Part shown: piece by piece, positions 41,889 to 64,000 of the stretch
Numbering within the stretch: the stretch's first letter is position 1
Layout of the letters: each line of letters starts with the position of its first letter
Source: Methanomassiliicoccaceae archaeon UBA381
GTDB taxonomy: Archaea; Thermoplasmatota; Thermoplasmata; Methanomassiliicoccales; Methanomethylophilaceae
Assembly: GCA_002502965.1 (NCBI GenBank)
Contig: DAQS01000006.1
Location: 77,552-141,551 of the forward strand
DNA: 64,000 nucleotides
Reading direction: 5' to 3'
Position numbers and translations under genes: made by a program
The notes under the pieces: generated by a model
Databases searched by the model: none
Told to the model about the DNA's origin: nothing
Seen by the model: the letters and a program-made list of their open reading frames with translations, nothing else

Positions 41889-41897
41889 AGGATCACC

Positions 41898-43555: not shown

Positions 43556-43986
43556 AGGTTCACCTCGCAAATCTCCTTGAATTCCTTTACAGGAAGTTTA
43601 TTCCTCTTCGGCTCCGGCGGAGCCTTCTCTCCCATATCTATCGCATCCATTGCGTGCTGCAGATTGGCCAGCAGTTTCCATTCGGCCTCCAGCTGGGAGT
43701 ATCCCGGCCTCGTGCCGTGCTGGGCCCTGCACCTGCGGGGATCGCCTGCGGGATATGCTCTTCTCTTGGAGTATATCCCGTGGGGGTCCAGCTTGCGGAG
43801 CTCGTCACGTACCTCCACGACGGTCTTCGGGTCCCCTTCCAGGAGGCATCCGTAACAGGTCTCCTTCACGGACAGCTCCCGGCCCATGGCGTGAACGGTC
43901 CTGGCCAGCTGGTCAGGTGTCACATTGGACGCCGGGGATATCATGATCAATCTCGTCTCCCTTTGTCTGGGTTTATTCTCGCTCAT
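43552..43986 (-). CDS. mmp6: Methanogenesis marker protein 6
   Basis: 144 aa with ATGA overlaps on both sides. Size and synteny fit. Confidence 0.78.
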   Translation of the reverse strand: MSENKPRQRETRLIMISPASNVTPDQLARTVHAMGRELSVKETCYGCLLEGDPKTVVEVRDELRKLDPHGIYSKRRAYPAGDPRRCRAQHGTRPGYSQLEAEWKLLANLQHAMDAIDMGEKAPPEPKRNKLPVKEFKEICEVNL

Positions 43987-45506: not shown

Positions 45507-46132
45507 CGCTCTCCCCCCTCGTTGATCCCGGGCAGCATCCTCTGTATCTTCGTGATTATCTCGTCCAGCTTCTCCTGGGGACAGGTCACGCCCCTGACGA
45601 TGCCTGTCACGATCTCCATTATCGTTCCCTTGGTGTTGATCTTGTCGTCGGGCGGCATGACCCTTGAGGTCTTGACGCCTATGGCCGCGAAATCTTCAAA
45701 GTCCACCGGGCACTGAGATACGATTATTGCCGGGATATCCACGTTCCTGAGTATCAGCCTCGCCTTCCATATGATGTGGGCGCGGACATTCCCCAGATGT
45801 ATGAGCGCCACCTTGAACTGCTGGATCCTCTCAACCTCTATGGGCTCGAGACCGAAGCATTGACCGTGGGATATGTCCGGAGCGTCCGCAGGGACGCCAG
45901 ATCCGGCGTTTAGGACCAGAACGGATGTGTCTATCCCTTCCTCTCTCAAGGCGTATGTGATCTCGCACACGGGCTTGGTGATGTGCCTGCGGCCGGGGCC
46001 CATAGCGACGGCCACGACCTCTCTTCCGCTCTCTGAGATGGTGGCCCTCTGAGCCAATGCCCCTCCCGGCCCAAGACCCATAGACTCGCGGCACTCAACA
46101 AAACTGAGATGCCTGCCTATGCGCTGTTTCAA
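45503..46132 (-). CDS. mcrC: Methyl-coenzyme M reductase operon protein C
   Basis: 209 aa. [21 protein letters not shown]...[25 protein letters not shown] matches McrC. TTG start overlapping the atwA stop. Confidence 0.9.
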
Positions 46133-47739
46133 CTCTTTTCACCGCCCGACTGCTCCCTTTCTATCTCCCTGAATTCATCGATGATCTCTTCAGGCTTCCC
46201 GATCTTGAGTACCCTGCCGCCCTTCATGAGTATGGCTCTGTCACAGCAATTGGTGACGAAATCCATGTCGTGGCTCACCACTATGAACGTTTCCTCCAGG
46301 TCCTTCCTGGCCCTGAGCACCGAATTGGCCACGGTCACCTTCGTTATGGGGTCCATTGTGCCGGTAGGCTCGTCAAGAACGACTATGCGGGGCTCTTTGA
46401 TCAGCACCTGGGCGAAGGCGATCCTCTGGTTCTCTCCCACGGAAAGCGTGTCCGGATAGGAATAGAGCACTTTCTCCACCTGATCCTCCGGAAATCCCAC
46501 ACTGAGGAGCACCTGGATAGCTTTCATCTTGGCAAGCTCGGCCGGCATCTTCATGCCTATGCATGTTGAGAGGTTCTGGAGAACGTTATCGAACGGGTAC
46601 AGGGTGTACTCCTGATGCAGGAACCCTATGTAGGGGGTCACACGGCCCTTTCCGGTGAATCCGGACTCGGCCATGTTTATCCAGTCGTCCCCCAGTTTTA
46701 TCTTGACCGTCCCGCTGGTAGCAGGGGTCATGCCCGCGATCATCCTGGACGTGGTGGTCTTACCGGCTCCTGAGAGCCCGACCAGGGCCACGATCTCATT
46801 CTGCTTGATATCGAATGTGACCCCGTCCACAGCTTTCACCACCCCTCTGACGACCGAGAAGAAGTGCTTCTTGGCATTCTCCAGCTTGATCATCGGTTCG
46901 CCGACGTTGGCGTACTCGTGCTTCTCGAAGTGATACTCCTCCATGAATTTGGATGTCACTTCGCCAGGTTTGCCCTTCATTATCACCTTCCCGGCATCAA
47001 GCCAGATCGCCTCGTCGGCCATCTGGTGCACGGCCTCCGGCCAGTGGGATGCCATCACCATGCATATCCCCCTGTCGTGGACGTATTTCACCAATCTCTT
47101 GTGAACGATGTCCGCCGTATACGGGTCCAGCGTCCCTGTGGGCTCATCCGCCAGGAAGAAGAGCGGGTTCTTGGCCAACTGCCTGGCCATGACCACTCTC
47201 TGCTTCTCTCCTCCGGACAGGTCCCTGGCTATATGGGTTGTCCGGTGGGTCATGTTCACGAAGTCCAGAAGATCGATCGCTCTCTGGACTTTGTCCGGAG
47301 CGTCGCCCAGGGCCTCGAATATATTCTCCACCACAGTATGATCTCCGAACAGAGCGAAGGTCCTCTGCAGCATGATGGCTATGCGGTTCTTCAACTCGTG
47401 CCTTATCGGGTCCCTGTCACCGAGAGCCCAAAAATCCACCCATTTGGTCTTGCTCTCGCCGCCGCATCTTGTGCACGGGACACCCTCAAAGGGCAGATCC
47501 AGGTTGCCGCACTTGGTACAGTGGCTGACATGGTAGAGGACCCTGCCATTATCGGGCCTGTATTCCTCTGTGCCCCTGATCATATGTATGAGCACGCTCT
47601 TGCCTGCCGCGCTCTTCCCTATGAGGCCGAGGATCTTGCCCGTGGACAGCGTGGCGCTTATGTTATCTAGAACGATTCTGCCTTCGAATTCCTTAGTGAC
47701 GTTCTCTATTCTCAGAAGGTCTACCGATTCATGGGCCAT
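46129..47739 (-). CDS. atwA: MCR system component A2 (double ABC ATPase)
   Basis: 536 aa. Two Walker A motifs ([16 protein letters not shown]), two LSGG-like signatures, and a Cys-rich insert CTKCGN...CTRCGG. Confidence 0.9.
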
Positions 47740-50676: not shown

Positions 50677-52338
50677 TTACACCCTTATGACAGCGGTCCT
50701 CTCGCCTGCAGGCTGGAACTCGCGAAGTCCGCCGCGCCCAATGTCCTTGGTTATGTTCGCGAAGTCGAACACAAGGCTCGGGTCTGCGAACGCAACACGG
50801 ATGAACGGGTTGGCCGTGAAGGCATCTCCGCGGGCAGCGTGGGCCGCCTTGGGTATGCCGGAGTAGCCGGACATGTGTCCGACGTTCATCGCGTAGTTGG
50901 GGTAGTTGGGACCTCTCAGCTCCATGGGGAGACCTTCGTCGGACCTGTAGGAGAACGAGTTGGCGGAACCGCACTGGTCCTGCAAGTCGTATCCGTAGAA
51001 TCCGAGCCTTCCAGTCCTCTCCTTGTGCTGCAGCATGGACAGATACCACATGTTGACACCGCAGTCGGCGTTACCGGTTGCCATGGATCCGGCGATACCG
51101 GATGCCGCGGCTGCGACGGTCGCCCTCTGGGATCCACCGAAGTGGGCCTCCATTGCGGCGGGGTACCTCTCGTACATCTCGAGGGCGTAGGTGTTGACGT
51201 TGTCTCCGAGCTCCATCAGCTTGTCGTAGTTGTTCGGGTCAAGCTTGCAGAAGCCGCCATACTTGTCCTTTATGGTGTCGATGGCGTAGTAGACGTAGTC
51301 CTCCAGGATGTTGTCGGTGTATGCAGCGGATGCATACTGTGTGAAACCGACTCCACCGGACATGTAGCCTCCGAGGTAGATCTGGTCGTAGATGATCGCT
51401 CCGAGTGCGACTGTCTCAAGGGACGCCCTTCCGGGGTCGTCAGGGTTGACACGGTCAGACTGAGCCATGTCTGCCAGGAATCCGAAGGGTATTCCTCCGG
51501 GTTCGTTGGGTCCCCTGGCGCGCCTTGCGGGCATCATCGTACCCATAGGCAGGGACTGGTGCTTCGCAGAGTATGCGAAGTCAGCGATCGCTGCTTCTCC
51601 GGCTGCGAGCCTGTAGGAGGTGATGAACGCCATCGAAATCTGCATCGCTGCGTGTCTCGAGGTGGTCGCACCATCCATGACCCTGCCGACTATGGAGGGA
51701 ACGCGGACTGCCTGCATGAGGGTGGATCCGATCGCCTTCTTCAGCTGGGCCGCGTGGTCCTTGCTGAACAGCTTGTTGATGTCGATGACGAACCTCTTGT
51801 CGAGCTCGTCGATCAGCTCATCGTTCCCGGAGTAGACCTTGACGTACGAGTCGTAGGCAAGGGCGGGGTTTATCTCCGCCATGTGCTCCTGAACGACTGC
51901 TCCGCCGGGCATCGTGTGGTTGACTGCCTCGAGGTACTCGTTGATGGTCTCGGGCGTGACTTCCTTACCAAGCCTCTTTTCGATGGTCTGGTGAGGGGCG
52001 TCCAGTCCGACCAGGATGGTCCTCCTTATGTCATCCCAAGCCTGCTGGATCGCAGGGTTGTTGATGCAGTGCAAGTCGTCGGGCTCCACATAGATGTCCG
52101 TGTGGGACAGCTGGTAGGGCATCCAGGACCTCTGTCCCAGAGGGACACCGATGTCCTGGTTCATCATGGGGATTCCACGTTCTTTAGCGATCTTGTTGGC
52201 CGCCTCTACGAACTCCACTTTCCTCTTGGACTGTCTCCAGCCGCCGAACTTGTAGTACGAGGTGTACTCGTCAGTGGGGTCCTCTTTGAACTTCTTCTTC
52301 ACAGCCGCCATGAACAGCTTCTCTTTGTTTTTGGCCAT
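50677..52338 (-). CDS. mcrA: Methyl-coenzyme M reductase alpha subunit
   Basis: The track ORF starts at a TTG at 52344. The ATG at 52338 gives [21 protein letters not shown]. Typical McrA segments follow, including [21 protein letters not shown] and [10 protein letters not shown]. Confidence 0.97.
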
Positions 52339-52344
52339 GTGCAA

Positions 52345-53118
52345 TCACACTCCCTTAACATTGAAGGGCTGGAAACCAGCGAAGGTCCTCAGCTTGTGTA
52401 TCCTGAGTCCGTACATGGTGACTTCCTTGTCGTCCTTCATATCTACGCCGTCCTCTCTGAAGATCGTGGTCCTCTTCTTGAGGTCCTCCATCTTCGCGGG
52501 CTTTCCGACAGAGATCCTTCTGTCGAGGGGCAGGGCTACCTGATCCTTGACATACACGACCTCTTTGGTCTTGTCGTCCCACTCGTACCTCTGCCATGCG
52601 TCGAACATGAGCCCGTGCTCATCCAGACGGCATGCGTGGCCGTGAACGGTCGCACCCCTGATACCGGTAAGGGCCGGGTCAAAGGTCTCGTTGTCTATCA
52701 TCTCTTTCGCGAGTTTCTCGAGGTCTCTCTCCCTCATCTCGATGATCTGCCTTCCGGACAGGGTACCCGTGTCGAGCCCTCTGTACCTGGACAGATACAT
52801 CCATGCCCTCTGATAGGGCGAGATGGGAGCGAAGTAGACGGAATCCGCGAACTGGATGTACCTTACGCGGTCTCCCTTCTTTGCACCCTCGATTGGTGTC
52901 ACGAGCTGCCTGATGGGGCAGTCAGGTTCGTTACCCTCCTCGATCGGGGGGTGGATGGACTTGTAGTCCTCTCCGGGGTTCCTGTGTCCCATTATCCTGA
53001 CGACGTCATCCATGGGGATGTCGCGCAGTTTCTTCAGGTTCTGTTTCGGATCCAAGTACCTGCGCCTGTTCGCGGCGGGGATACTCTTTCCGGGGTAAAA
53101 TTGTCTCTTGTAAGCCAT
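52345..53118 (-). CDS. mcrG: Methyl-coenzyme M reductase gamma subunit
   Basis: The ATG at 53118 gives MAYKRQFYPGKS, the canonical McrG N-terminus. Confidence 0.95.
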   Translation of the reverse strand: MAYKRQFYPGKSIPAANRRRYLDPKQNLKKLRDIPMDDVVRIMGHRNPGEDYKSIHPPIEEGNEPDCPIRQLVTPIEGAKKGDRVRYIQFADSVYFAPISPYQRAWMYLSRYRGLDTGTLSGRQIIEMRERDLEKLAKEMIDNETFDPALTGIRGATVHGHACRLDEHGLMFDAWQRYEWDDKTKEVVYVKDQVALPLDRRISVGKPAKMEDLKKRTTIFREDGVDMKDDKEVTMYGLRIHKLRTFAGFQPFNVKGV

Positions 53119-53120
53119 AT

Positions 53121-53558
53121 TTAACACCTCAGTTTATAGTCTGAAAGCGTGGGTCTGTATTTCGAGTACCTTCCTACATCTATGGTGAACCCTACTGGGA
53201 TCGCCGTTTTGCAGATCCTGCCGATATCCTCTACCGAGGCATTCAGCATGTCCTCGTTCTCGACCTCGAGCTCAAGGAAGAAATCCCCTACGAGCTTGGT
53301 GAGAAGGATCTCCTGATCTCCGAACTTGATCTTCCTGCGTTCAGGATGATTGTTGTCTATCCCTTTGTTGGGGCCGCTGTTTATCTTAGCGGGGAGATTC
53401 TCGCCTTTCAACGTGATCTGCCTGATGTTGCCCAAAGCCGACAATGCGTTCAGGACCTTCTCTGTAGATTCGGCTCCGAGCAGACGCTCAGTCGTTATCC
53501 TAATCTCGGGAAGCATCTTTCCCGTATACTTTGACTCCGGACTTTGTGTACTCGTCAT
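53121..53558 (-). CDS. mcrD: Methyl-coenzyme M reductase operon protein D
   Basis: 145 aa, lying between mcrB and mcrG. Confidence 0.85.
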   Translation of the reverse strand: MTSTQSPESKYTGKMLPEIRITTERLLGAESTEKVLNALSALGNIRQITLKGENLPAKINSGPNKGIDNNHPERRKIKFGDQEILLTKLVGDFFLELEVENEDMLNASVEDIGRICKTAIPVGFTIDVGRYSKYRPTLSDYKLRC

Positions 53559-53564
53559 ATGACA

Positions 53565-54899
53565 TCACAGCTTTTTCGCTATTTTCTTAGCCTCCGCACC
53601 GACGAACTGCATCGGGGTTCTGAACTCTGGCATGTCTCCGAAGACCTCCTTGAAGGCACCGGACGTAGCCTCTGCGGAGAACGTCTGGGTTCCACCGTCA
53701 AGGCAGTTCGCAGCAGTAACCGCGGGTATCAGGACACCCTTGGAGTGCCTGGTAACGACGTGGTTCCCGTGGAACAGACCGGGTCCGCCTCCTCCGTAAA
53801 TGGAGTGAGAGAAGAAGGACATTCCTACGCAAACACCCATCGAGCGGCCGTAGTCCACAGAGGGGAGTCCGGTCTCGTGCTCGAGAAGATCGTTGTAGTA
53901 CAGTATCGTAGAGGGAGCACCCTGGGCAGCCCTTGCGGCACCGACGTTAACCATAACGGCGGCGACCATTCCGACTGCTGCGTATGCGTTCCACAGCGAA
54001 AGATCGTCGGTGGTGTACACCTTATATCCGCTGGGGAGAGTCTCTTTGACCCTTATGACCCCATCATCGATGGCGGTCTCCATAAGGGACTCTATGACGG
54101 TACCGACCGTTCCGGTCTTTCCGTTCTTCTTGACCATCTTGTAGAGCATGTTGTTCGCGTTAAGTCCCTGGTATGCGAGACCGAGGAGGTGTCCTCTCTC
54201 GAAGGGCCCTATCGCGTCACCCATCTCGAATGCGGCGGTCTGCTCGAATATCGAGGAGAGTGCAACACCCTGCATGGCGTTCCTGCTGACCAGGGCGACC
54301 ACGTGGTTGGACATGATGTTCCTGAGAGCATAGCCTGCACCCTCATTGTTCTGAGGGAGATCCAGGATGGATCTGAGGTTCGTTCCGGCAAATCCGACTG
54401 TCTGAGGGTATCTTCCCCAAACCGCGCCCTTGACCATGTTGGCCTTGTGCATCGGTATGTCGAACTCATCGATTATCGCCTGAACGGTCGCCGCGGCAGT
54501 CACGGTGAATCCCGTTGTGTACTCTACACCAGCGCTCAGTCTCTCTTCAGGTGCTATCACAATCAGGCTCTTTCCGCCTGGTTTGACCTCGACGATGGTT
54601 TCGTCGCCGTCATAGACCTGGACCATGTCCTTGACCGCTTTTGCGATCTTCTCCGCATTCTTGACGAGCGGTATGTCAATCTCTTTGCCTCTGATCTGGG
54701 CTCCGCCGCCGCCGATCACGCCGGTCTTGAGAGATTTCTCAATACCTGCGAGGTTGACAGCCACGGTCCTCTTCGTCATAGCGGCAATCCTTTTGATTGC
54801 TTTGTTGCGCAACGGACTTATGGCTTCAAGGGGCACATCCTTCGCGATGCGCTTTCCCCTGTCGTCATACAGGTCAATTACGTCCTTGTATTTTGGCAT
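53565..54899 (-). CDS. mcrB: Methyl-coenzyme M reductase beta subunit
   Basis: The ATG at 54899 follows GGAGGT and gives [16 protein letters not shown]. Confidence 0.95.
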
Positions 54900-55055
54900 T
54901 TCATACCTCCATTCTATATACAACCGAACAAAAGGCAGAACCTTTCGTTCCCCCTTGCAATTTTTGTAAACGAATCAGAGGATATAAAGGAACTAGTTTT
55001 TTGGCTGTGTAAACTATTGTTTATCGGAAAACGTCCAGTTTAGCAAAAAAAGCAC

Positions 55056-55064
55056 ATTTAAAGG
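55056..55064 (-). promoter_or_regulatory. TATA-like element CCTTTAAAT about 157 nt upstream of mcrB; a second one, CCTTTATAT, lies at 54982..54990
   Basis: Read directly. The same 9-mer occurs upstream of the corrinoid protein gene at 63675..63683. Confidence 0.3.
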
Positions 55065-55108
55065 ACATTTTTTTGTGTACACGGCTTGATATATATTGAT
55101 TTTGTTTT

Positions 55109-56335
55109 TCACTTGGATCTGCGCGTTTTGAGTGCATTATTCAGTCTTCCGCCCACTCTTTCAGCATCCATCGTGTACACTTCCAGGCCCGGGACGATCA
55201 TCCTGACCGTAGGGATACCAAGCTCCGGACGGGTGAAATCCACGGCGATCGCGGAATCGAATCCTGAATCCATCAGGGCACCAAGCACCATTTCAATATC
55301 GTCCAGCACATAAGGAGTGGACCTGCTCTCCATTTCCGACAAATCGACGGAATCGGAGGAAGGGCGGTACCACATTGGATTGAGGGCCTTGATCCTATCA
55401 TAGCCTAGCTTCAGTGTGCTCTCCCGCAGCTCTGCATTCACCTTCAGGCCGTGCCTGTGGGATGTTCTGCTCTGCGCCACTTCAGTCAAGGCTCTTACGG
55501 CCGCTATCTCCGGGTCCAAATGGGTCCCCACACCGATCGTCAGCATCTCCGGGTCCTTCGTCCTCACGTCGTCAGCCGCAGCGCCTATGGTGGTTATCCC
55601 TATGTCGCTTGTAAGATCCTTGAGGCTTATCTCCACCCCAGCTTCCGAGAACTTCTCGAGGAGCCTGCCTGGAACAGATTCCGGATCGTCCACTATCACA
55701 TCCCTGCCGGAGCTTTCACGATAATCGGCTATGGACCACGCATCCCGCTCTATCAGTTCGAAAAGTGAATGGAGTATCGCCTCCTCGATCGTGTTCCCGG
55801 ATGCGAGACCGTTCGTGTTGAACCTCATCAGCTGCATGTCGCCGTCAGGATAGTACGGATAGAACGCGGCGCAGGCCGGTACCCATACCTCGGAGCCGCC
55901 GAAGAGGTCGTGCCCTTTCACCCATGCGATCTCCTTTCCCTGCCAGGATGCGAGAGCGTGTTGCGGCAGTATAAGGTCCGGAGGGTAGACTGCGGGACCG
56001 GTCTCCAAAGCCTCCTCGTAAGTGCCGTGGACCACCGTGTCATCCTCCCTTCGCTCGCAGCAATAGCGCTCCATGGCCTCCATTACAGCAGAGGCCATGG
56101 CCTGCTCCGCCGTGGGACCTTTGCCGTTGTAATTGCCGAACGTGCCCTTGGCCGTGCTCTTCCGGTACACAGAGAACACGGGTATGCCCGTATTGTCCCT
56201 GCCGGTGATATCCTCCAAAGGCTCCATTCCCGCTTTGGCCAACAGGGGCGCCGCCTTTCTCACCGTCTCCTCCGGGAGAACTGTCCTTATCCCGGTCCTG
56301 ATATCGGCCTTCGGACATCTGCTCAGCTTCAGCAT
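55109..56335 (-). CDS. ycaO: YcaO-type ATP-dependent amide activator (methanogenesis marker protein 1; McrA thioglycine formation)
   Basis: The ATG at 56335 gives MLKLSRCPKAD. Family segments include NGKGPTAEQAMASAVMEAMERY, NTNGLASGNTIEEAILHSLFELIERDAW and ALTEVAQSR. Confidence 0.9.
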   Translation of the reverse strand: MLKLSRCPKADIRTGIRTVLPEETVRKAAPLLAKAGMEPLEDITGRDNTGIPVFSVYRKSTAKGTFGNYNGKGPTAEQAMASAVMEAMERYCCERREDDTVVHGTYEEALETGPAVYPPDLILPQHALASWQGKEIAWVKGHDLFGGSEVWVPACAAFYPYYPDGDMQLMRFNTNGLASGNTIEEAILHSLFELIERDAWSIADYRESSGRDVIVDDPESVPGRLLEKFSEAGVEISLKDLTSDIGITTIGAAADDVRTKDPEMLTIGVGTHLDPEIAAVRALTEVAQSRTSHRHGLKVNAELRESTLKLGYDRIKALNPMWYRPSSDSVDLSEMESRSTPYVLDDIEMVLGALMDSGFDSAIAVDFTRPELGIPTVRMIVPGLEVYTMDAERVGGRLNNALKTRRSK

Positions 56336-56339
56336 GCTA

Positions 56340-56840
56340 TCACTCCTTCCCTTTGACCTTCGTCTCATAGACGAAGATCTCTGGATTGTCATTAACTGAC
56401 GACCTCTCCACCAGGATGTCGACCTCCACGTTCCTGACCGCGGGCATCTTCAGCAGCTTGGCCTGAATGAATTCGTAGAGATCGTCGACGTTCTTGGTGT
56501 ACATCTCGAAAACTATGTGGTGGTCCCCGAAGGATTTGTAAACATAGCCTATCTCCTTCTGGTCCTTGAGATTCTCCAGAACTACGGACACGGGCACCCC
56601 CATTATCTGCACGGCGACCAAGGACTTCATAACCCCGATCTTCCCATAGTCTATGTCTAGGCAGTAGCCGCGTATTATCCCCTCTTCCTCCATCCTTGCC
56701 ACCCTGCGGCTGACCGTAGCCTTGGATATCCCCTGGTTCTCGCCCACGGTGCCCATCGGTTTTCTGGAGTCTGATTTCATCGATTTCAGTATCTCGATGT
56801 CCCTGTGATCAAGAATGTCTGTCATGGAACCATGTTGCAT
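56340..56840 (-). CDS. Lrp/AsnC family transcriptional regulator
   Basis: 166 aa. An HTH (ISKATVSRRVARMEEEGIIRGY) plus a RAM-like domain. The stop lies 4 nt before the ycaO start. Confidence 0.85.
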   Translation of the reverse strand: MQHGSMTDILDHRDIEILKSMKSDSRKPMGTVGENQGISKATVSRRVARMEEEGIIRGYCLDIDYGKIGVMKSLVAVQIMGVPVSVVLENLKDQKEIGYVYKSFGDHHIVFEMYTKNVDDLYEFIQAKLLKMPAVRNVEVDILVERSSVNDNPEIFVYETKVKGKE

Positions 56841-56905
56841 ATGGGACGGTCGGATATTAAAAATGTTACGTAAGGGGTTTCAATGAGGCTCGGCCACACT
56901 TGGAC

Positions 56906-57619
56906 TCAGTCGCGCTTCGCCTTTGAGAGTATCCCGTCTTTCCACTTATCGAGGATCTCCATTGCCGGGGCGATCCTGTTGTACGGAACGCCTATTATCA
57001 TCTCATCCTGACGCACGGATGTTCTTTTCCTGGTACCGAAGCAGCCTATCGATATGTTAGGCTTGTCGGATGCCACCGGTACAACGACCGCGTCCTCGCA
57101 CATGCATTGGAACGGAGCTGTCACATAGCTCGTCCTGCCGCCGGTGCCCGCGGTCTCCAATGCGGATATCCAGTATATCCTCTCCGGGATATCGGTGAAG
57201 ACCACCACATCCGGCACGAAATCCGCCTGGCCCAGAGGGCAAACGATCTCCCCGATCACGCTGCCGGGGGGCAGGTCCGTTCTGGTGTCTATCATCTTCT
57301 TTGCCGCGTCCTTGGTGGAATGGAGGCCCATATTGAAATGGAACTCTCCGTCCGCGACCTTGTCCGGGGTCTTCATCATCCCGAGAGAGGATGCGCCGAC
57401 ATTGCAGGACATGTTCTCCGGCAGCGCTAATACGCACGAGCCGTTCATGGCATCCGCAATAAGCTGGCAGTGGCTCCTTTGGCCTTCGAGGCGCGGAGGG
57501 CTGCTCGGGATGCCCTCCCCCTTCCTTATGAGTTTGACCGCAACGGGATCGTGCCTCAGGGTCAGCGTCGACTTTAATTTCTCCGCGTATTCGGAATTTA
57601 ACTTCTTGAAATCTGCCAT
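56906..57619 (-). CDS. DUF169 family protein
   Basis: The ATG at 57619 gives MADFKKLNSEYAEKLKSTLTLRHDPVAVKLI. Family name from memory. Confidence 0.7.
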   Translation of the reverse strand: MADFKKLNSEYAEKLKSTLTLRHDPVAVKLIRKGEGIPSSPPRLEGQRSHCQLIADAMNGSCVLALPENMSCNVGASSLGMMKTPDKVADGEFHFNMGLHSTKDAAKKMIDTRTDLPPGSVIGEIVCPLGQADFVPDVVVFTDIPERIYWISALETAGTGGRTSYVTAPFQCMCEDAVVVPVASDKPNISIGCFGTRKRTSVRQDEMIIGVPYNRIAPAMEILDKWKDGILSKAKRD

Positions 57620-57679
57620 GCACAGAGGATGCCTGTGCAACAGAAATAAAGTTTGTGAATAAGAGGTTTGGAATTGCGT

Positions 57680-59311
57680 TCAGTTGCCTATCTGAAGGTC
57701 CTTGAAAACGTAGACTTTCTCGGGGCAGTTGAACTCGCATGCCTGGCAGGCTGTCCCGAGGCACAGGTCGGAACGTACGTTCACTTCGAAGTTCCCCTTT
57801 TCCCCGAGGACCGTCAGCGCGTCCTCCGGGCACTTGCGCTGGCACTTCCTGCATCCGGTGCACCCTTTGAAACGAGCCCGCATTATCCTGCCCACAGGGT
57901 CGAGTGTCTTCAGGCCCTCACCCACATCAGGTATGTCGGATCTGACCTTCCTTATAACGGTTGCCGGGACCTTTATCGGAGGGAGCCTCTTAAGCCCCTC
58001 GTATTCCAGCATGTCATTGTACATGTCCATGCCCATGCCCTCGTCCCAATAGGCGAGCTCGAGGACGTACATTTTCTCGAACATCTCCGATCCGGCGAAC
58101 ATCAGATGATTTGACGATATCGAACTGGCGACATCCTTCATCATATCCAGCGTCTTATCTGACGCCAGAAGGTCCCTGGCCATCATGAGCGACGTGTTTC
58201 CCAGCTGATATACTGCATCCAGGACGCGCGGGATCATACCGCACTCCTGCGCCTTCAGCGGATCCACGTAAGTTCCAGATGCGCCGGCCATGTACATCGT
58301 CTTGATGTCTCCGTCATCCAGGCCCACATGGTGCATGAGGGTGCGGTGCCCCGCCCTTATGGCTCCCATAGCCTTGCCGGATTCAGTGACATCCGCCTCC
58401 GTGAAATATACCCCGTCAGCCAGCTTTATGCGGCGGTCGGGAGTCGCTATGGATGGCCTTCCGATCAGACCGGACCTGAGACCCAGCGCCATGGATGAGA
58501 CGACACCGGTTCCTGTTATGCCCTTCGCCTTGTAGTCAAGGATCTTTATCGTCTCCCCTGTTACGGGGTTCGTTCTCGCCGTGACCACGGGCACAAGGGT
58601 GTCATCGAGAATGATGATGTCCCATTTCCCGTCGCCCGCTTCGTTGACATCGGATATCGCATGAGGAGAGGCTAGCATCCCGCATTCGACGGACTGACCT
58701 TCCATGGCCGGTCCCGCCGCAGCTGAACCGGAGTACAGCTCGCCTTCGTGGAACAGGCCCATCTCGGCGTTCGTGCCGTAATCCGTGACCATGCATGTCT
58801 CTTTCCTCTCCAGCAGCCCGGACTTGATGATCATGGCCAACGCGTCTGCGCCGATCTCGTGCCTTATGGCCGGAGGTATGATCACGTCCGCCTCCGGGTC
58901 CAGTCCCGGTATTCCTATCTCGCCGACGTTCCTCACGCCGCCTTTCCTGTCGGGGCTGACGACCCCCAGGCTCTTCAGCTTGCTCTTCCCTGCGAAGGCC
59001 AGGTCCCTGATCTCTATGTCCTCGAAAAGAGAGAGCTGGATCGGATTGCCGCAGACTGAGACCTTCGTCACCTGCTTCAGATTGTCCTTGCCGTAAAGCG
59101 CTATGAGATCGCCGATTGTCTCCACTATTATGCGGTGGGTTATCTCGCGCCCGGAAGTCATCCAGAAATGCATATGATCCATGATGTTCGCGCCCGGTAG
59201 CGGGTGCCTGACGGTTATCGCCGTGCTGAGGATCTTGGCTTTCCTGTCCAGGTCCACAAGATGGGACCTGAAACCGCTGGTTCCGAGGTCTAATGCTATT
59301 CCGTAGGGCAT
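57680..59311 (-). CDS. ramA: RamA-type corrinoid protein reductive activase (ASKHA ATPase with a C-terminal 2x[4Fe-4S] ferredoxin domain)
   Basis: 543 aa. The N-terminus is MPYGIALDLGTSGFRSHLVD. The C-terminus carries CTGCRKCQRKCP and CLGTACQACEFNCP. Confidence 0.85.
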   Translation of the reverse strand: MPYGIALDLGTSGFRSHLVDLDRKAKILSTAITVRHPLPGANIMDHMHFWMTSGREITHRIIVETIGDLIALYGKDNLKQVTKVSVCGNPIQLSLFEDIEIRDLAFAGKSKLKSLGVVSPDRKGGVRNVGEIGIPGLDPEADVIIPPAIRHEIGADALAMIIKSGLLERKETCMVTDYGTNAEMGLFHEGELYSGSAAAGPAMEGQSVECGMLASPHAISDVNEAGDGKWDIIILDDTLVPVVTARTNPVTGETIKILDYKAKGITGTGVVSSMALGLRSGLIGRPSIATPDRRIKLADGVYFTEADVTESGKAMGAIRAGHRTLMHHVGLDDGDIKTMYMAGASGTYVDPLKAQECGMIPRVLDAVYQLGNTSLMMARDLLASDKTLDMMKDVASSISSNHLMFAGSEMFEKMYVLELAYWDEGMGMDMYNDMLEYEGLKRLPPIKVPATVIRKVRSDIPDVGEGLKTLDPVGRIMRARFKGCTGCRKCQRKCPEDALTVLGEKGNFEVNVRSDLCLGTACQACEFNCPEKVYVFKDLQIGN

Positions 59312-59421
59312 GGTCTTTCCTCTATGCGCCGTTAAAGGTCTCCTTGGTTAAAATCGTATGCGAAAGAAGAGGAAAAATGTTGAAGGCCGCGACGGCATAG
59401 CCGCCACGGCCGTTAATGGTT

Positions 59422-60450
59422 TCAGCCTTTGATGGCCTTGACGACAGCCTTCAGGTTCTCGTCGGAGATCATCGCGGACAGGCCGCATCCCGGGGAAACA
59501 ATGTTGAATCCGGCGGCGGCGACCCTCTTGGCCTCGCTGGCACACTCTGCTGGGGTTCCCTGGAGCAGGGGCTTGACGACACCGATGTTCCCTATCAGTG
59601 CAGCGCGTTTGTTGACGTGCTTCACGGCTGCCGCGGAGTCGACCTTCTCCTCGATGGACAGACCGGTAACGCCGGTCTGTATCATGGAGTCGAGGATGGG
59701 CATGGTGTCACCGCAGATGTGCAGGACAGTGTATGCATCCTTGGTCTTGCCAAGGCTGTCATGGACGTACTTACCGGAATAGTCCCAGAACATGTCAGGG
59801 GACAGAAGGTCCGTGGAAGAGGAAGGCTCGGACATCTGGATGATGTCGGCTCCCGCATCGGACAACGCCTGGCAGTAAGCTTTGATGACGGGGTTGACGG
59901 CGTCGACCCATTTGAGGACCTGGTCGGGCTCCATTATGATCCCGAAGACGAGGTTCTCCGTGGACACCATGTGGCCTGCCAGAGTGAACGGTCCGGTGTT
60001 GCCCGCTATGACCGCGTAGTCCTTTCCGTAATCCTTGGCCATTTGCCTCGTGGCCTCGATGACGACCGCGGGCCTTCCGCCCTTTATGAACTCCTCAGGG
60101 TCCATGAGGTGGGGCTCGTCATACTCGCTGGTCATAGGATCGAATTTGAACGGGTGCTCTTTGAGCATGGGGGTGCTGTTCTTCTTTCCGGGATCTACCT
60201 TGCATCCGAGCCTCTCAGCTTCTGCTGTGAGACAGAACGCGGACCTTACAGCCTCAAAACCCAGAACCGTGGCCTGGCCGGCACCCAATTTCGCCATCAT
60301 CTTGGCGTCGGAGTGCGCTGCTGGCCAGGAAACGCCGAGGGCGTCCATCTGTCCGGCCGTCGCGCTCTGGGTGAAGACGGCCACCGGGGGCCTGTCCAGT
60401 TTCTCCATTCTCATGGCTGCGAGTATCCTTTCTCTTGGAGTCATTGACAT
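59422..60450 (-). CDS. Methylcobamide:CoM methyltransferase (MT2, MtaA/MtbA family, UroD fold)
   Basis: The ATG at 60450 follows GGAGA and gives MSMTPRERILAAMRMEKLDRPPVA. A later segment reads VLHICGDT. I cannot tell MtaA from MtbA by eye. Confidence 0.85.
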   Translation of the reverse strand: MSMTPRERILAAMRMEKLDRPPVAVFTQSATAGQMDALGVSWPAAHSDAKMMAKLGAGQATVLGFEAVRSAFCLTAEAERLGCKVDPGKKNSTPMLKEHPFKFDPMTSEYDEPHLMDPEEFIKGGRPAVVIEATRQMAKDYGKDYAVIAGNTGPFTLAGHMVSTENLVFGIIMEPDQVLKWVDAVNPVIKAYCQALSDAGADIIQMSEPSSSTDLLSPDMFWDYSGKYVHDSLGKTKDAYTVLHICGDTMPILDSMIQTGVTGLSIEEKVDSAAAVKHVNKRAALIGNIGVVKPLLQGTPAECASEAKRVAAAGFNIVSPGCGLSAMISDENLKAVVKAIKG

Positions 60451-60542
60451 ACGATAATTCTCCTTGTTGTTTCCGTACATCTTCAAGTTATATTAAAGTT
60501 AACTGAAACACATTGTTACACTCCGCAGATCACGACAAACCC

Positions 60543-62750
60543 TCATTTCTCGATAGGATCCCCGACCGCTCTGGATATCACTTCCACGAAGTTCACGGAC
60601 TTCGCGAAGTTCTCCTCCTCCCAATCCCCCATCCCCCCTTCGGTGGCCGTATGGGTCTTGATCTTGGACGACGTCTTGATATTGACGCCCCCCATGCTCC
60701 TGACCTTCGATTCCAGGAACGACTCCATGCTTCTGGAGGCCGATGCTATCGCATTTCCCAGGTGGGAATGGTATGACGTGCCCACATATGGTATGGTCGC
60801 CATGAACCGGTAGTCCTGCGTCGGGGCTACGGTTGCTGACATGGACTCGGAGACCTTGCTCGTGACAACACCCACCGCGTTGCCCACATCGAACTCCTCT
60901 GGGAACACGACCTCAGCCCCGATTCTTTCCCCCAGGTCGGCCATCATGAATCTGGCAGGCGCCCCTATCCCTACTATGGGCGTATTGAACCTCGGTCTCA
61001 GCGTCATGATCTCCCCCTCGCCGAAAGACGTCATCCTCCTAAGCAGGACCTCGGACCCTTCGTCCTTCCATCCGAGGAGCTCGTCGTCGAAGATCTTCGT
61101 CATTATGTGCTCGGCCACCTTGTTCTTTATCTCCTCGAAGATCGCCTTGGCGGCCTGCATCATGGTCATGCCGTACCTCTCGCTCACGGCACCGATCCCT
61201 GCGATAGCCCCTTCGGGGTTGCCGCTCTCGAAGAATCCCAGGAAAACCATCACATCTGTGGGCGTGAGGCACGAATGGATCAGGGCCCCTCTTGCCGTCA
61301 GGGAGGCCAGTTCCTCGTCTATCACCCATAGGCCGTTCGAGGCATTCATTATCTCCATCTTGTTCATGGGGCCTTTGCCCGCAAGAACCTCGTACACCCG
61401 GGCCTCTTTGCCCTTGAGATTCTTGGGGTCGTATCCGTTCTCTGCCACATAGTAATCGTAGATCGTCGTATGCTTTATCTGCGATATTACCTCGGGATAT
61501 TTCATAGCCAGAGTGGAAAGAGGCAAGACCCTTTCCGGACCTATGATGAACTTGGACCCTACGGTCATTATCTTCGAGTCGCCTCCCAAGGCCACGGTGT
61601 ACATGTCGACGGCTTTGACGCGGGTTCTCCACCCGCCTATCCTGGCACCTTCCTGCTGAACCTGCGGGAACCCGCCGCTCATGACCGCTATATCCGTGGA
61701 CGTGCCGCCTATATCGACGACTATGCAGTCATCCAATCCCGAGAGCACCTTGCCACCCATTGCACTTGCGGCCGGGCCCGAGAGTATGGTCTCCACAGGA
61801 TAATGCCTGGCATCCTTCAGGGACATGACCGACCCGTCCCCCTTGTAAGCCATAATGGGGGCGGTTATCCCCTTCTCACGGAACGTCTTCTCGACATCGT
61901 CGAAGAACTTGCTGACGGCAGGTATGAGCCTGCCGTTCAGCACTGCGGTCTCCGCCCTCAGATCAACACCGAGGACCGCGGACAGCTCATGGCCAGCCAC
62001 GGTGGGCAGCCCTGTGATCTCCTCTGCCAAGGCCTTTACCTTCTTCTCCTGCGTCGGGTTGAGATTCGCAAAAAGACCCGATATCGCTATTGAGTCCACT
62101 CCCTCTGAGACCTCTCTTATGGCCTCCTCTATCTCGGCCTTCGACAGCGGTGCTATGGACTTGCCCCTATGATCGTAACCTCCTCTCACTACGACCTGCT
62201 TCTTCTCGCCGAAGCTGACCTTCTCCATGGGATTCCATCCGATAAGGATGAGACCGACGTCCCCTCCCTGGCCCTCCAGGACTGAGTTGGTCGCCAGAGT
62301 GGTCGATATGCCCACATAGGAGATATCCTCCGGCCTTATGTCCGTAGCCTTGAACACAGCATCCACCGATCTGAAGAGACCTATCGACAGGTCCTCATGG
62401 GTGGTTGGAGACTTTCTCTTTGCAAGCACCGTATAGTCGTCAAGATCCAATATGACCGCGTCCGTATACGTCCCGCCGGTATCCACGCCCAGTCCGTATC
62501 TGGCGTTCACGACGGTCTCTTTCTCATCTGACACCGTTTCCGGCTCGACTAGTCCGACACCCTCCACCAACTTCCCCAGGTACCCGGAGACCTTCTCCCT
62601 CTTCTTCGTCTCTGAGTTGTACCTTGTTGTCTGATAGTAGACGTAATAGGAGTTGCCGGCCTTCTTGACGTCGAAGCATTTCCTACCGGCTTTCTTCTCG
62701 GAATAAATCCACTCCTGCACCCACTCGTCATAATCGGATCTTTGAACCAT
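60543..62750 (-). CDS. Hydantoinase A/oxoprolinase-like (HyuA-type ASKHA) protein with a roughly 85-aa N-terminal extension
   Basis: 735 aa. ASKHA motifs are LGVDTGGTYTDAVILD and VVDIGGTSTDIAV. No HyuB-type partner lies nearby. Confidence 0.8.
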   Translation of the reverse strand: MVQRSDYDEWVQEWIYSEKKAGRKCFDVKKAGNSYYVYYQTTRYNSETKKREKVSGYLGKLVEGVGLVEPETVSDEKETVVNARYGLGVDTGGTYTDAVILDLDDYTVLAKRKSPTTHEDLSIGLFRSVDAVFKATDIRPEDISYVGISTTLATNSVLEGQGGDVGLILIGWNPMEKVSFGEKKQVVVRGGYDHRGKSIAPLSKAEIEEAIREVSEGVDSIAISGLFANLNPTQEKKVKALAEEITGLPTVAGHELSAVLGVDLRAETAVLNGRLIPAVSKFFDDVEKTFREKGITAPIMAYKGDGSVMSLKDARHYPVETILSGPAASAMGGKVLSGLDDCIVVDIGGTSTDIAVMSGGFPQVQQEGARIGGWRTRVKAVDMYTVALGGDSKIMTVGSKFIIGPERVLPLSTLAMKYPEVISQIKHTTIYDYYVAENGYDPKNLKGKEARVYEVLAGKGPMNKMEIMNASNGLWVIDEELASLTARGALIHSCLTPTDVMVFLGFFESGNPEGAIAGIGAVSERYGMTMMQAAKAIFEEIKNKVAEHIMTKIFDDELLGWKDEGSEVLLRRMTSFGEGEIMTLRPRFNTPIVGIGAPARFMMADLGERIGAEVVFPEEFDVGNAVGVVTSKVSESMSATVAPTQDYRFMATIPYVGTSYHSHLGNAIASASRSMESFLESKVRSMGGVNIKTSSKIKTHTATEGGMGDWEEENFAKSVNFVEVISRAVGDPIEK

Positions 62751-62784
62751 GGAACCAGTAGAGCGGTTTGATTGTATTTATTCA

Positions 62785-62818
62785 TACCGTATAATATGTT
62801 ATACGGTATTATACGGTA
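62785..62818. promoter_or_regulatory. Three copies of the 10-mer TTATACGGTA (one inverted, two direct and tandem), 35-68 nt upstream of the HyuA-like gene
   Basis: Read directly: TACCGTATAA-TATG-TTATACGGTA-TTATACGGTA. Confidence 0.4.
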
Positions 62819-62900
62819 AGTCGCTATCCAGCATACTGCGGGCTACAGATTAAAAGTGAAAATGAAAAGGTTTCTTTCCTGTCGGACTCTATGGTCCAGC

Positions 62901-63539
62901 TTAGATGCCCAGGAGCTTCGCGGCGAAGTGGGATGCCTCTACAGCGTCGTAGGTCCATCCGTCTGCACCGATCTGGTTGGCGAACTCTTTCGAGGTTGCG
63001 CCGCCGCCGATCATGGTGAAGATCTTGCCCTTCAGACCCTCCTCCTTCAGGAGGTTCTCCATGTCCTTCATTCCCGCCAGGGTGGGGGTCATGAGGGTGG
63101 ACTCGGCGATGATCTGGGCCTTCTCGTCCTTTGCCTTCTGGAGCATGTCCTTTATCGGGACATCCTTGCCCATGTCGTGGATGGTGAGTCCGAGACCGGT
63201 GAGCATGGCCTTCACGATGTTCTTTCCGATGTCGTGAACGTCACCCTCGACAACGCCGAGGACCACGGTTCCCTTGGTCTTTCCGCCGTCTCCTGCGAGC
63301 AGGGGGAGAACAAGGTTGAGACCCTGGTAAAGGGTGTTGGCGGACAGCAGGACCTGGGGCAGGAAGTACTGTTTTGCGGCGTACTTCTCACCAACGATCT
63401 CCATTGCCTTGGAGAGGCCGTCGAAAACAACGGATTTTGCGCCTATGCCGGCGTCCAGGCATTTCTGGGTAGCTGCTTTTGCTTCTTTTATCTTGCCAGT
63501 TACGACAATGTCAATCAATGCGTCAATCTCTGCGCTCAT
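62901..63539 (-). CDS. Methyltransferase cognate corrinoid protein (MtmC/MtbC/MttC-size B12-binding protein)
   Basis: 212 aa. An N-terminal helical cap is followed by the DxHxxG motif in VVEGDVHDIGKNIV and GGG in TMIGGGATS. Confidence 0.9.
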   Translation of the reverse strand: MSAEIDALIDIVVTGKIKEAKAATQKCLDAGIGAKSVVFDGLSKAMEIVGEKYAAKQYFLPQVLLSANTLYQGLNLVLPLLAGDGGKTKGTVVLGVVEGDVHDIGKNIVKAMLTGLGLTIHDMGKDVPIKDMLQKAKDEKAQIIAESTLMTPTLAGMKDMENLLKEEGLKGKIFTMIGGGATSKEFANQIGADGWTYDAVEASHFAAKLLGI

Positions 63540-63674
63540 TTAATTTACCTCCATCCTCCGAGGCCAACGGCCTTCCAAGATGTTGTTCACGCATTCTCGT
63601 TCTTTCAACTTAAAGGCTTTGATGGATGGATTATATGTCCACGTACCATACATTCGCGCGTTTAACAAGATGGT

Positions 63675-63683
63675 ATTTAAAGG
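63675..63683 (-). promoter_or_regulatory. TATA-like element CCTTTAAAT about 136 nt upstream of the corrinoid protein ATG
   Basis: Read directly. Identical to the mcr upstream 9-mer; the flanks also agree (ATTTAAAGGNAC on the plus strand). Confidence 0.3.
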
Positions 63684-63704
63684 TACCCTTAACGCTGTTA
63701 TTTT

Positions 63705-64000
63705 TTACAATGCGAGGTCCGATATCTCCCCCAAACGCCCCAAGGGGATCACTCCCATCTCGGACACACCGTAGACCTTGGCGGAATCGGTGTCCGCACC
63801 CCTACAGGCAGGGGACATGAAGCTCTCCGGATCGGAAAGCACAAGATCAGTGCCCGACGACAAAAGACTGAAAGGCGGTAGCACTATTATGCCTTCCTTC
63901 TCAAGATGCAGGAAGCATGCCATCTTGATCCCGCCGCTGAGCGGGTCCCTTATCTTGACGGACGGGTGCTCGTGACCGATTATGACCGGTCTCAGGCCCG
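63705..64000 (-). CDS. Metallophosphoesterase-like protein; the 5' end lies beyond the window
   Basis: The open frame reaches the window edge. It translates as ..RPVIIGHEHPSVKIRDPLSGGIKMACFLHLEKEG. The GHEHP motif is typical of calcineurin-like phosphoesterases. Confidence 0.5.
   Translation of the reverse strand, partial: GLRPVIIGHEHPSVKIRDPLSGGIKMACFLHLEKEGIIVLPPFSLLSSGTDLVLSDPESFMSPACRGADTDSAKVYGVSEMGVIPLGRLGEISDLAL

Follow-up and report, generated by a model that had tools for sequence, protein, structure and literature searches.

A methyltransferase-activase block upstream of mcr with an orphan corrinoid protein and a HyuA-type ATPase in a Methanomassiliicoccales archaeon

How is a corrinoid protein served when no gene for a substrate-specific methyltransferase lies beside its own? 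The question is raised by five genes of Methanomassiliicoccaceae archaeon UBA381, a member of the Methanomethylophilaceae in the order Methanomassiliicoccales. They are located near one end of the stretch of DNA analyzed here, a window of 64,000 nucleotides from contig DAQS01000006.1 (GenBank assembly GCA_002502965.1, positions 77,552 to 141,551 of the forward strand). The genes encode a corrinoid protein, a HyuA-like ATPase of the ASKHA type, a methyltransferase of the corrinoid-to-coenzyme M kind (MT2), the corrinoid activase RamA, and a DUF169 protein. A preliminary description, made from the sequence alone, reported that a substrate-specific methyltransferase (MT1) was missing. It offered either a generic MT2/activase module with a spare corrinoid protein or a missing function supplied by the HyuA-like and/or DUF169 protein, as a new MT1 or as an ATP-dependent corrinoid loading or repair factor. 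We conclude that the block is a known module, consisting of MT2, RamA, and an already published orphan corrinoid protein, in a variant form, the variant being defined by a conserved HyuA-like ATPase from a corrinoid-linked subfamily that spans two domains of life. It is reasonably probable that the block constitutes a substrate-independent MT2/RamA back end in which the HyuA-like protein serves corrinoid proteins as an ATP-dependent accessory and is not an MT1.

Gene content of the block and its flanks

All five genes are intact and lie on the minus strand, directly upstream of lrp-ycaO-mcrBDGA. Open reading frame (ORF) positions and matches to Pfam and NCBIfam bear out the arrangement given in the preliminary description, and profile searches of all five proteins upheld its family assignments. 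The block and its immediate flanks are as follows.

62901-63539, minus strand: corrinoid protein, 212 aa, with Pfam domains B12-binding_2 (PF02607) and B12-binding (PF02310)
60543-62750, minus strand: HyuA-like ASKHA protein, 735 aa, with Hydant_A_N and Hydantoinase_A domains
59422-60486, minus strand: MT2, 354 aa as listed, URO-D fold, TIGR01463
57680-59311, minus strand: RamA, 543 aa, TIGR04270
56906-57640, minus strand: DUF169 protein, 244 aa as listed, PF02596
56340-56840, minus strand: lrp, 166 aa, Lrp/AsnC family
55109-56392, minus strand: ycaO, 427 aa as listed, TIGR03266 (McrA-glycine thioamidation)
50677-56840, minus strand: the downstream context as a whole, lrp, ycaO, mcrB, mcrD, mcrG, and mcrA
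63705-64000, minus strand: C-terminal 97 codons of a calcineurin-like phosphoesterase (Metallophos) gene, a conserved upstream neighbor

Among the parts of a three-component corrinoid system, the block thus holds a corrinoid protein, an MT2, and a RamA activase, and no adjacent MT1. The spacers between its five genes measure 56 to 150 nt and leave no room for a further gene. Antisense and overlapping ORFs of the block gave no Pfam match, and positions 56000-64000 gave no Rfam match. We scanned 45 window ORFs against Pfam, namely, every ORF of at least 250 aa except overlap shadows, together with several shorter ones. MtaB, MtmB, MtbB, and MttB were absent from these 45 ORFs, a result that leaves ORFs below 250 aa outside the block mostly unscanned and does not explicitly exclude the amber-split halves of a pyrrolysine-containing MT1. 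The ORF that runs off the window (63705-64000) was considered as an MT1 and rejected, since it is the C terminus of the Metallophos gene. An 88-kb contig identical to the window extends 10 kb past this edge and carries Metallophos, DHH, OTCace (aspartate/ornithine carbamoyltransferase family), RtcB, HD, and PUA genes; no canonical MT1 was found within those 10 kb. Nor was one found beside the cluster in the Pfam-annotated orthologous loci (loci are numbered with the prefix L) L015/L016, L102, and L106. The absence of an MT1 noted in the preliminary description therefore holds for the block, the 45 scanned ORFs, and the 10 kb beyond the edge.

MT2 and RamA are readily recognized. MT2 scores above the cutoff of TIGR01463, the MtaA/CmuA family (307 versus 235 bits), and above that of PRK06252 (308 bits), and it stays below the equivalog cutoffs for MtaA (302 of 400) and MtbA (233 of 600). 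It aligns with MtaA of Methanosarcina mazei (4ay7) at an E value of 7e-62, with the zinc-site motifs HxC (VLHICG) and PGCG aligned. Its true start is probably the ATG at about position 60450, judging by orthologs, which would give a protein of 342 aa. RamA reaches 699 bits against TIGR04270 (cutoff, 500) and combines a RACo-type ASKHA domain with a C-terminal 2x[4Fe-4S] ferredoxin domain (Pfam RACo_C_ter, Raco_middle, and Fer4_7). The typical arrangement in Methanosarcina has mtaA and mtbA standing alone and ramA placed in methylamine clusters. Like the MtaA/MtbA and RamA pairs of Methanosarcina and Methanomassiliicoccus luminyensis (mtbA), the two proteins pass the family cutoffs, and the HxC and C zinc-site motifs are kept; here, in contrast, their genes form one block with those for an orphan corrinoid protein, a HyuA-like ATPase, and a DUF169 protein, directly upstream of mcr. 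The M. luminyensis ortholog of this MT2 (WP_019176765) was named mtbA in Kröninger 2017 (PMC5688252).

The corrinoid protein consists of a cap domain and a Rossmann B12-binding domain, and its DxHxxG motif is read directly in the sequence as D100-V-H102-D-I-G105. Its nearest solved structures are MttC (7xcn), MtmC (3ezx), and MtaC (2i2x), and it falls below every NCBIfam equivalog cutoff (168 of 310 bits for MtgC, 160 of 350 for MtbC, and 128 of 450 for MtaC). Across orthologous loci it is 75 to 98% identical. Between the window and L015, which belongs to a different family, identity is 75% for the corrinoid protein, 74% for MT2, 69% for RamA, and 62% for the HyuA-like protein; McrB is 84% identical between the window and L011 and L022. 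Borrel 2014 listed a corrinoid protein, "mtxC1," with an "uncertain methyl-compound" (AGN26884, WP_019176763; PMC4153887, Table S10 and Fig. S6), adjoining "mta/mtbA1" (AGN26883, WP_019176765; Table S10) and present in all three genomes compared, whatever their substrate range (Table S10). These accessions most likely correspond to the cluster in the window. A generic MT2/activase module, as the preliminary description proposed, agrees with the naming in PMC4153887 and PMC5688252; this reading, with its orphan corrinoid protein, is already published, and what is new is the HyuA-like protein. In the Methanomassiliicoccales genome papers that were searched, the main texts do not speak of the HyuA-like and DUF169 genes. 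That the corrinoid protein is a mere spare is doubtful, since its identity between families is 75%, compared with 62% for the HyuA-like protein and 84% for McrB, a degree of conservation that seems unlike that of a dispensable copy.

The HyuA-like ATPase within and beyond Methanomassiliicoccales

A search of genome contigs with the HyuA-like protein returned 11 close loci, all from Methanomassiliicoccales, the closest being metagenome-assembled genomes (MAGs) of Methanomethylophilaceae and "Methanomassiliicoccales archaeon RumEn M2," with HyuA-like proteins 93 to 94% identical. Synteny was scored over 18 distinct Methanomassiliicoccales loci carrying the gene, the contigs L001-L003 being identical to the window. 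The HyuA-like gene adjoins MT2 in 17 of the 18 loci, and the corrinoid gene lies directly upstream of it in 14 of 16 scorable loci; RamA follows MT2 in 11 of 16, and DUF169 is present in 10 of 15. Corrinoid-HyuA-MT2 is the conserved core across the order, and RamA and DUF169 are variable additions. The full nine-gene order, from Metallophos through mcr, recurs in L007, L022, L023, and L106, where HyuA identity is 63 to 69%. L015 (Methanomassiliicoccaceae) keeps Metallophos-CoP-HyuA-MT2-RamA, where CoP is the corrinoid protein, and then diverges. L102 has HyuA-MT2-RamA-DUF169 without a corrinoid gene, while the trio of corrinoid, HyuA-like, and RamA genes is missing as a whole from L101, leaving Metallophos-MT2-DUF169-mcrBDGA.

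More-divergent arrangements were also seen. In L021 (4872-11032), from a divergent lineage, Metallophos and radical-SAM genes are found with a corrinoid gene (58%), a 664-aa HyuA-like gene (42%), and MT2 (50%); this HyuA-like protein has no N-terminal extension, which implies that the core trio predates the extension. HyuA-like genes without corrinoid neighbors in L017 (12208-12911) and L020 (9011-9723) are followed by two genes of 112 to 125 aa (DGC domain/DUF6951), and a DUF6951 gene is found near mcr in L101 (17024-17353). A second, 669-aa HyuA-like paralog in a Methanomassiliicoccales MAG is likewise followed by two DGC-domain genes, with URO-D, corrinoid, CdhD, and CobW genes within about 6 kb. 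The ATPase may have another set of partners in these small DGC/DUF6951 genes.

The HyuA-like protein matches Hydant_A_N at residues 87-245 and Hydantoinase_A at residues 265-407. Coverage of the latter profile stops at half (positions 1-146 of 291), the reason being a subfamily-specific insert of about 85 aa between the GP and TPTD motifs (residues 410-495; about residues 405-500 at window positions 61251-61538). In the AlphaFold2 (AF2) model the insert forms three helices and one strand; it may be winged-helix-like, although its Pfam matches are subthreshold (TrmB winged helix, E value of 0.036). An N-terminal extension of about 85 aa (62496-62750), a helix followed by a beta-meander, is conserved in orthologs and confined to this order. 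Neither this extension nor the insert gave a significant Pfam match (best, TrmB at 0.036 and DUF5695 at 0.035). The 37 orthologs are 734 to 757 aa long and at least 59% identical to the window protein, with a mean column identity of 71%, and all of them carry the ATP-binding motifs DTGGTxTD, DxGGTSTD, and GGDS without change.

The model (mean predicted local distance difference test score [pLDDT], 80) has a full-length HyuA fold, with template-modeling (TM) scores of about 0.55 to 0.6 and 16 to 18% identity to HyuA subunits of N-methylhydantoinase, acetone and acetophenone carboxylases (acetone carboxylase beta), and caprolactamase alpha. The fold search gave no TIM-barrel methyltransferase fold. 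Among NCBIfam models the best match was caprolactamase alpha, at 99 bits versus a cutoff of 1000, and no equivalog of a characterized enzyme was reached. A weak N-terminal match to MutL/GlmL (PF13941, 35.6 bits, profile positions 3-65 of 450) did not extend to full length, and NCBIfam GlmL gave an E value of 3e-7 and 29.8 bits versus a cutoff of 475. The protein has the full-length fold and ATP-binding motifs in common with the HyuA of hydantoinases, oxoprolinases, and acetone carboxylases, but unlike those enzymes it has no HyuB partner nearby, and its identity to solved HyuAs in structural alignments is low, as given above. HyuB (PF02538) was found neither among the scanned window ORFs nor in 11 distinct Pfam-annotated loci, and no recurrent neighbor family of HyuB size, about 550 aa, appeared in 80 metagenome loci.

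The DUF169 protein matches PF02596 (COG2043) over profile positions 1-206 of 209, with an E value of 1e-54 and 185.7 bits. Its start is probably at 57619, which would give 237 aa, in keeping with the ortholog lengths of 235 to 237 aa on which this start is based; the full range among orthologs is 235 to 251 aa. Among its conserved residues, C51, C72, C127, C174, C193, H50, H94, and H100, are four invariant and one near-invariant Cys and one invariant and two near-invariant His. Despite a confident AF2 model (pLDDT, 91), a fold search of the Protein Data Bank (PDB) found no match (best E value, 0.25), and neither did a PDB sequence search. Our homolog search reached orthologs within the order, to which statements on linkage apply: DUF169 lies between MT2 or RamA and (lrp-ycaO-)mcr wherever the contig extends, and it is missing from five clusters, of the 15 scorable, that keep CoP-HyuA-MT2. 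A literature search on DUF169 in methanogens found no function. The proposal that this protein supplies the missing function finds no support, given its absence from 5 of 15 orthologous loci and its lack of a recognizable fold relative.

Outside the order, an exhaustive search of 1.8 billion representative proteins, from which the 150 best representative clusters were considered, placed the HyuA-like protein in a subfamily of proteins of about 650 aa. These are 31 to 45% identical to it and aligned from about residue 85, many to near the C terminus, and the TPTD, GIGAP, and NAVGA motifs are common to order-level and subfamily alignments. Named members come from Acetohalobium, Fuchsiella, Sporomusa, Selenihalanaerobacter, Syntrophaceticus, Zhaonella, Desulfosporosinus, Desulfitobacteriaceae, and Chloroflexota. 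In four of five named bacterial contexts, a complete corrinoid methyltransferase operon surrounds the HyuA-like gene (HydA below).

Acetohalobium: MttB-BCCT-CoP-MttB-CoP-MttB-HydA-pterin MT2
Sporomusa: CoP-MttB-MttB-HydA
Desulfosporosinus: MttB-CoP-MttB-BCCT-CoP-MT2-HydA
Syntrophaceticus: MttB-CoP-MttB-HydA-MT2

Linkage to corrinoid genes, whose absence from related genomes would have spoken against any functional connection, is conserved not only in Methanomassiliicoccales but also far outside it. A corrinoid protein, MttB, pterin MT2, URO-D MT2, RACo, or DUF1638 lies within 3 kb in 27 of the 80 metagenome loci, and the top recurrent neighbors are MttB (13 loci), corrinoid protein (12), and pterin-binding MT2 (8); no other real neighbor gene family occurs in more than 5. 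In 77 loci outside the order, 39 corrinoid-system ORFs lie within 3 kb, compared with 7 at 3 to 8 kb, a density about 6-fold higher over similar amounts of DNA. On a neighbor-joining tree the association is scattered over many deep branches. In three metagenome loci (L074, 6876-7910, and two others), a gene for epoxyqueuosine reductase QueG, which is cobalamin dependent, lies directly upstream of the HyuA-like gene, without methyltransferase genes.

The subfamily also includes longer proteins. Members of 900 to 960 aa make up more than 20 of the 150 best clusters, and all 4 that were scanned have an N-terminal DUF1638 domain; a fifth protein, of 833 aa, has a partial one. In Phaeobacter inhibens, a split B12-dependent methionine synthase needs DUF1638 and a RamA-like protein, which co-occur across alphaproteobacteria, and cells become methionine auxotrophs in minimal medium when DUF1638 is lost (PMC5764234). 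DUF1638 as well as the RamA-like protein is induced together with MtgC in Ruegeria (PMC12478193).

An "N-methylhydantoinase A" is co-induced within a nine-gene glycine betaine methyltransferase cluster of strain DCMF (PMC9768040), and "HydA" is drawn in clusters of the Sporomusa/Frackibacter type (PMC9768040, Fig. 5). These proteins, from strain DCMF, Sporomusa ovata, and "Ca. Frackibacter," probably belong to the same subfamily; membership is confirmed for those of Acetohalobium, Sporomusa sphaeroides, Desulfosporosinus, and Syntrophaceticus. As in the window, bacterial HydA genes lie between corrinoid/MT1 genes and the MT2 gene, without HyuB. They differ in length (about 650 to 670 aa, without the 85-aa N-terminal extension), and their operons carry MT1s and a pterin-binding (tetrahydrofolate) MT2 rather than a coenzyme M MT2. 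The "hydantoinases" MA4395/MA4396 of Methanosarcina acetivorans, near mtaCB2 (PMC11619418; 10.1101/2025.05.05.652248), are not counted as members; one of the two gained a frameshift in a methanol/trimethylamine evolution experiment.

Possible roles of the ATPase and the corrinoid protein

We favor the reading in which the block would be the substrate-independent back end of methyl-reducing methanogenesis, placed beside mcr. MT2 would take the methyl groups of methylated corrinoid proteins and transfer them to coenzyme M, and RamA would use ATP and low-potential electrons to return oxidized Co(II) corrinoid proteins to the active Co(I) state, with MtaB, MtmB, MtbB, and MttB and their own corrinoid proteins presumably encoded elsewhere in the genome. 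Two conserved parts, the orphan corrinoid protein and the stand-alone HyuA-type ASKHA ATPase, would accompany MT2 in this task. The ATPase would act on corrinoid proteins through ATP binding or phosphoryl transfer, a target and a mechanism that we infer; it might keep them in a state open to reduction or loading, or else insert the cobamide or exchange it, for example when the cofactor is damaged. It would work beside RamA and not replace it.

This assignment follows from the conserved placing of the gene beside those for corrinoid proteins and MT2 in archaea as well as bacteria, the lack of HyuB, and the fusion to DUF1638. Together with the intact ATP-binding motifs, these observations make the corrinoid loading or repair factor of the preliminary description the best supported of its suggestions. 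There are precedents for the arrangement: RACo/RamA, GlmL/MutL, and DdrA/GdrA likewise involve the gene for an ASKHA ATPase beside that for its B12-protein client. The HyuA-like protein is nevertheless distinct from GlmL and DdrA, its overall fold being that of HyuA and its MutL match covering about 65 of 450 profile positions, and from RamA, since it has no Fe-S domain.

Several observations weigh against the accessory role. Since ATP-dependent activation is already provided by RamA, another ATPase would have to do something different, and the role of the orphan corrinoid protein is left unexplained. Within the order, L017 has a HyuA-like gene with neither a corrinoid nor an MT2 gene nearby. 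Outside it, 53 of the 80 metagenome loci have no corrinoid-system gene nearby, one large clade of the HyuA-like tree is never found with corrinoid genes, and the contexts of two DUF1638-HyuA fusions (L061 and L077: Hcp, HD, ferredoxin, acetyl-CoA hydrolase, and deiminase) are uninformative. The fifth named bacterial context, from Chloroflexota, places the gene among those for DAO (an amine oxidase), ornithine cyclodeaminase, and EamA, and EamA is next door in five metagenome loci; given such neighbors, some members may be small-molecule enzymes. All of the bacterial operon examples are of the quaternary-amine type (MttB/BCCT), which would also suit a role in processing substrate or product. 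Finally, the literature on hydantoinases with MttB or corrinoid proteins yielded no published function for any member of the subfamily.

A more far-reaching version of the accessory role, which we put forward tentatively and regard as rather unlikely, is that stand-alone HyuA-like ASKHA proteins, including the DUF1638 fusions, form a widespread and unrecognized class of ATP-dependent corrinoid accessories. These might resemble the methyltransferase activation protein (MAP) in that phosphorylation by ATP would enable them to shift a corrinoid protein to a reducible or loadable state; in Methanomassiliicoccales they would do so with the orphan corrinoid protein in the core methane pathway. MAP is reported to have subunits of 60 and 30 kDa, and to our knowledge it has no chromophore and its gene has never been assigned. 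As summarized in PMC5007285, MAP of Methanosarcina barkeri phosphorylates itself with ATP, and in its phosphorylated form it activates the corrinoid MT1 separately from the electron donor (Daas et al. 1996). The comparison is one of analogy, MAP having no known sequence and the HyuA-like protein having a mass of 81 kDa.

Alternatively, the corrinoid protein and the MtaA-type enzyme might be a complete system of the MtsA/MtsB kind, in which one URO-D-fold enzyme performs both half-reactions and no MT1 is needed. The methyl donors would then be methylated thiols (dimethylsulfide, methanethiol, or methylmercaptopropionate) or another good methyl donor. The M. barkeri system likewise pairs a corrinoid protein with an MtaA-family enzyme and no separate MT1, and MtsA is, according to PMC4153887 citing Tallant et al. 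2001, an MtaA homolog that catalyzes both half-reactions. Such a system would account for a missing MT1 in the presence of a dedicated and highly conserved corrinoid protein and for an MT2 that stays under the MtaA and MtbA equivalog cutoffs. However, Borrel 2014 assigned mtsA and mtsB to other Methanomethylophilus alvus genes (AGI86076, AGI86077; PMC4153887), so that the published mtsAB orthologs of the order are different genes, and Methanomassiliicoccus intestinalis has mtxC1 without mtsAB (PMC4153887, text and Table S10). In the window, the 735-aa ATPase gene interrupts the pair, and in L101 and L102 MT2 occurs without a corrinoid gene. We consider this explanation unlikely.

It is also possible that the HyuA-like protein is a small-molecule enzyme of methylated-amine metabolism, such as an ATP-dependent kinase, a lactamase, or a carboxylase subunit, and that its adjacency to corrinoid genes reflects a common pathway. 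A full HyuA fold with intact catalytic ATP-binding motifs would suit such an enzyme, as would the bacterial contexts, every one a betaine-type operon with BCCT transporters and Grd reductases, and the one context with DAO, OCD (ornithine cyclodeaminase), and EamA genes. We nonetheless judge it distinctly unlikely, given that the DUF1638 fusion points to cobalamin (PMC5764234) and that HyuB occurs in none of the 11 distinct annotated loci. Genes for a transporter or an amine enzyme are, moreover, absent from the Methanomassiliicoccales cluster, which has only those for the generic MT2 and RamA beside mcr.

A further reading, proposed in the preliminary description, is that the HyuA-like protein, with or without DUF169, is itself the missing MT1, an ATP-dependent activator/transferase that would methylate the orphan corrinoid protein from an unrecognized donor. 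No MT1 is present, the gene stands between the corrinoid and MT2 genes, a frequent position for an MT1, and HyuA-type enzymes such as acetone carboxylase and caprolactamase, which the protein matches in fold, phosphorylate poorly reactive substrates. Two observations make this role very unlikely: bacterial members coexist in their operons with one to three MttB-type MT1s as well as with corrinoid proteins and MT2, and the fold is not that of a TIM-barrel methyltransferase. DUF169, absent from a third of the scorable orthologous clusters and without a recognizable fold relative, does not repair the argument.

Hardly credible, finally, is that the orphan corrinoid protein is an anabolic methyl carrier, loaded from methyl-coenzyme M or a methylated corrinoid protein by a reversed MT2 or another methyltransferase and donating to biosynthesis, for example to a methylcobalamin-dependent methionine synthase of the MetE type (methanogen MetE is said to use methylcobalamin, reportedly after Schröder and Thauer 1999), in an order without the tetrahydromethanopterin (H4MPT)/Mtr branch. 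Its occurrence in all three genomes of Borrel 2014 regardless of substrate range (PMC4153887, Table S10), its conservation almost as strong as that of Mcr, and the absence from the order of the six-step one-carbon pathway that reduces CO2 to methyl-coenzyme M (PMC4153887) would fit, but the idea is purely inferential, a methionine synthase gene was not found in the block or the scanned window ORFs, and the HyuA-like protein would be left unexplained.

The spacer, the wider window, and what the block may mean

The corrinoid and HyuA-like genes are separated by a 150-nt spacer (62751-62900) that contains an inverted repeat, ATACCGTATAA...TTATACGGTAT, at 62785-62818. TACCGTATAA occurs in the window in three exact copies, all of them within this spacer, and their total match count was reached by 0 of 100 shuffles. 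The inverted repeat is conserved in aligned orthologous spacers, and in 11 distinct related loci (L004, L005, L007-L010, L013, L015, L016, L023, and L102), besides the window-identical L001-L003, the 11-mer precedes the HyuA-like start by 35 to 70 nt. After the stop codon of the corrinoid gene comes a conserved AAACCTTTTC. The repeat is probably a transcription factor operator or promoter region, for which the adjacent Lrp is one candidate regulator. As L102 keeps the 11-mer upstream of its HyuA-like gene even without a corrinoid gene, HyuA-MT2 and the later genes are probably under a regulated promoter of their own.

The remainder of the window forms a methanogenesis core island that includes mcrBDGA. 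A gene call on the contig identical to the window gives ycaO a length of 408 aa. This gene follows the Lrp-type gene (55109-56840) and is followed by mcrB, so that tfuA is not directly downstream; the rest of the window was left unchecked for tfuA. A cluster of the Mcr maturation/activation type occupies 40379-47739 on the minus strand and includes the following genes.

46129-47739, minus strand: ABC-type ATPase, component A2-like
45503-46132, minus strand: MCR_C-like gene
40379-41314, minus strand: mcrC

The same cluster contains a 507-aa ORF without a Pfam match, DUF2112, a BadF/BcrA-type ATPase, and DUF2113. In L009 and L010, ORFs whose lengths (the only feature compared) match this cluster lie 2 to 3 kb downstream of MT2, where elsewhere RamA-DUF169-mcr stands. 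Also on the minus strand, a 1963-aa ORF (21129-27020) with at least five Listeria-Bacteroides repeat (Flg_new) domains is likely a surface adhesin typical of host-associated Methanomassiliicoccales.

Members of the Methanomassiliicoccales remove trimethylamine in the human gut and contribute to methane from the rumen, and their methyl-transfer machinery is a target for probiotic and methane mitigation work. The core MT2/RamA module of this machinery travels with two strongly conserved parts that lack an explanation, the orphan corrinoid protein and the HyuA-like ATPase. The family of the latter also occurs in quaternary-amine demethylation operons of acetogens and sulfate reducers, and the DUF1638 fusion ties it to B12-dependent methionine synthesis in marine bacteria. 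If the ATPase is indeed a helper of corrinoid proteins, a component would be missing from both the current pathway models and the in vitro reconstitutions of B12-dependent methyl transfer, and the ATP-dependent activation activity described biochemically in 1996 would have a candidate gene.

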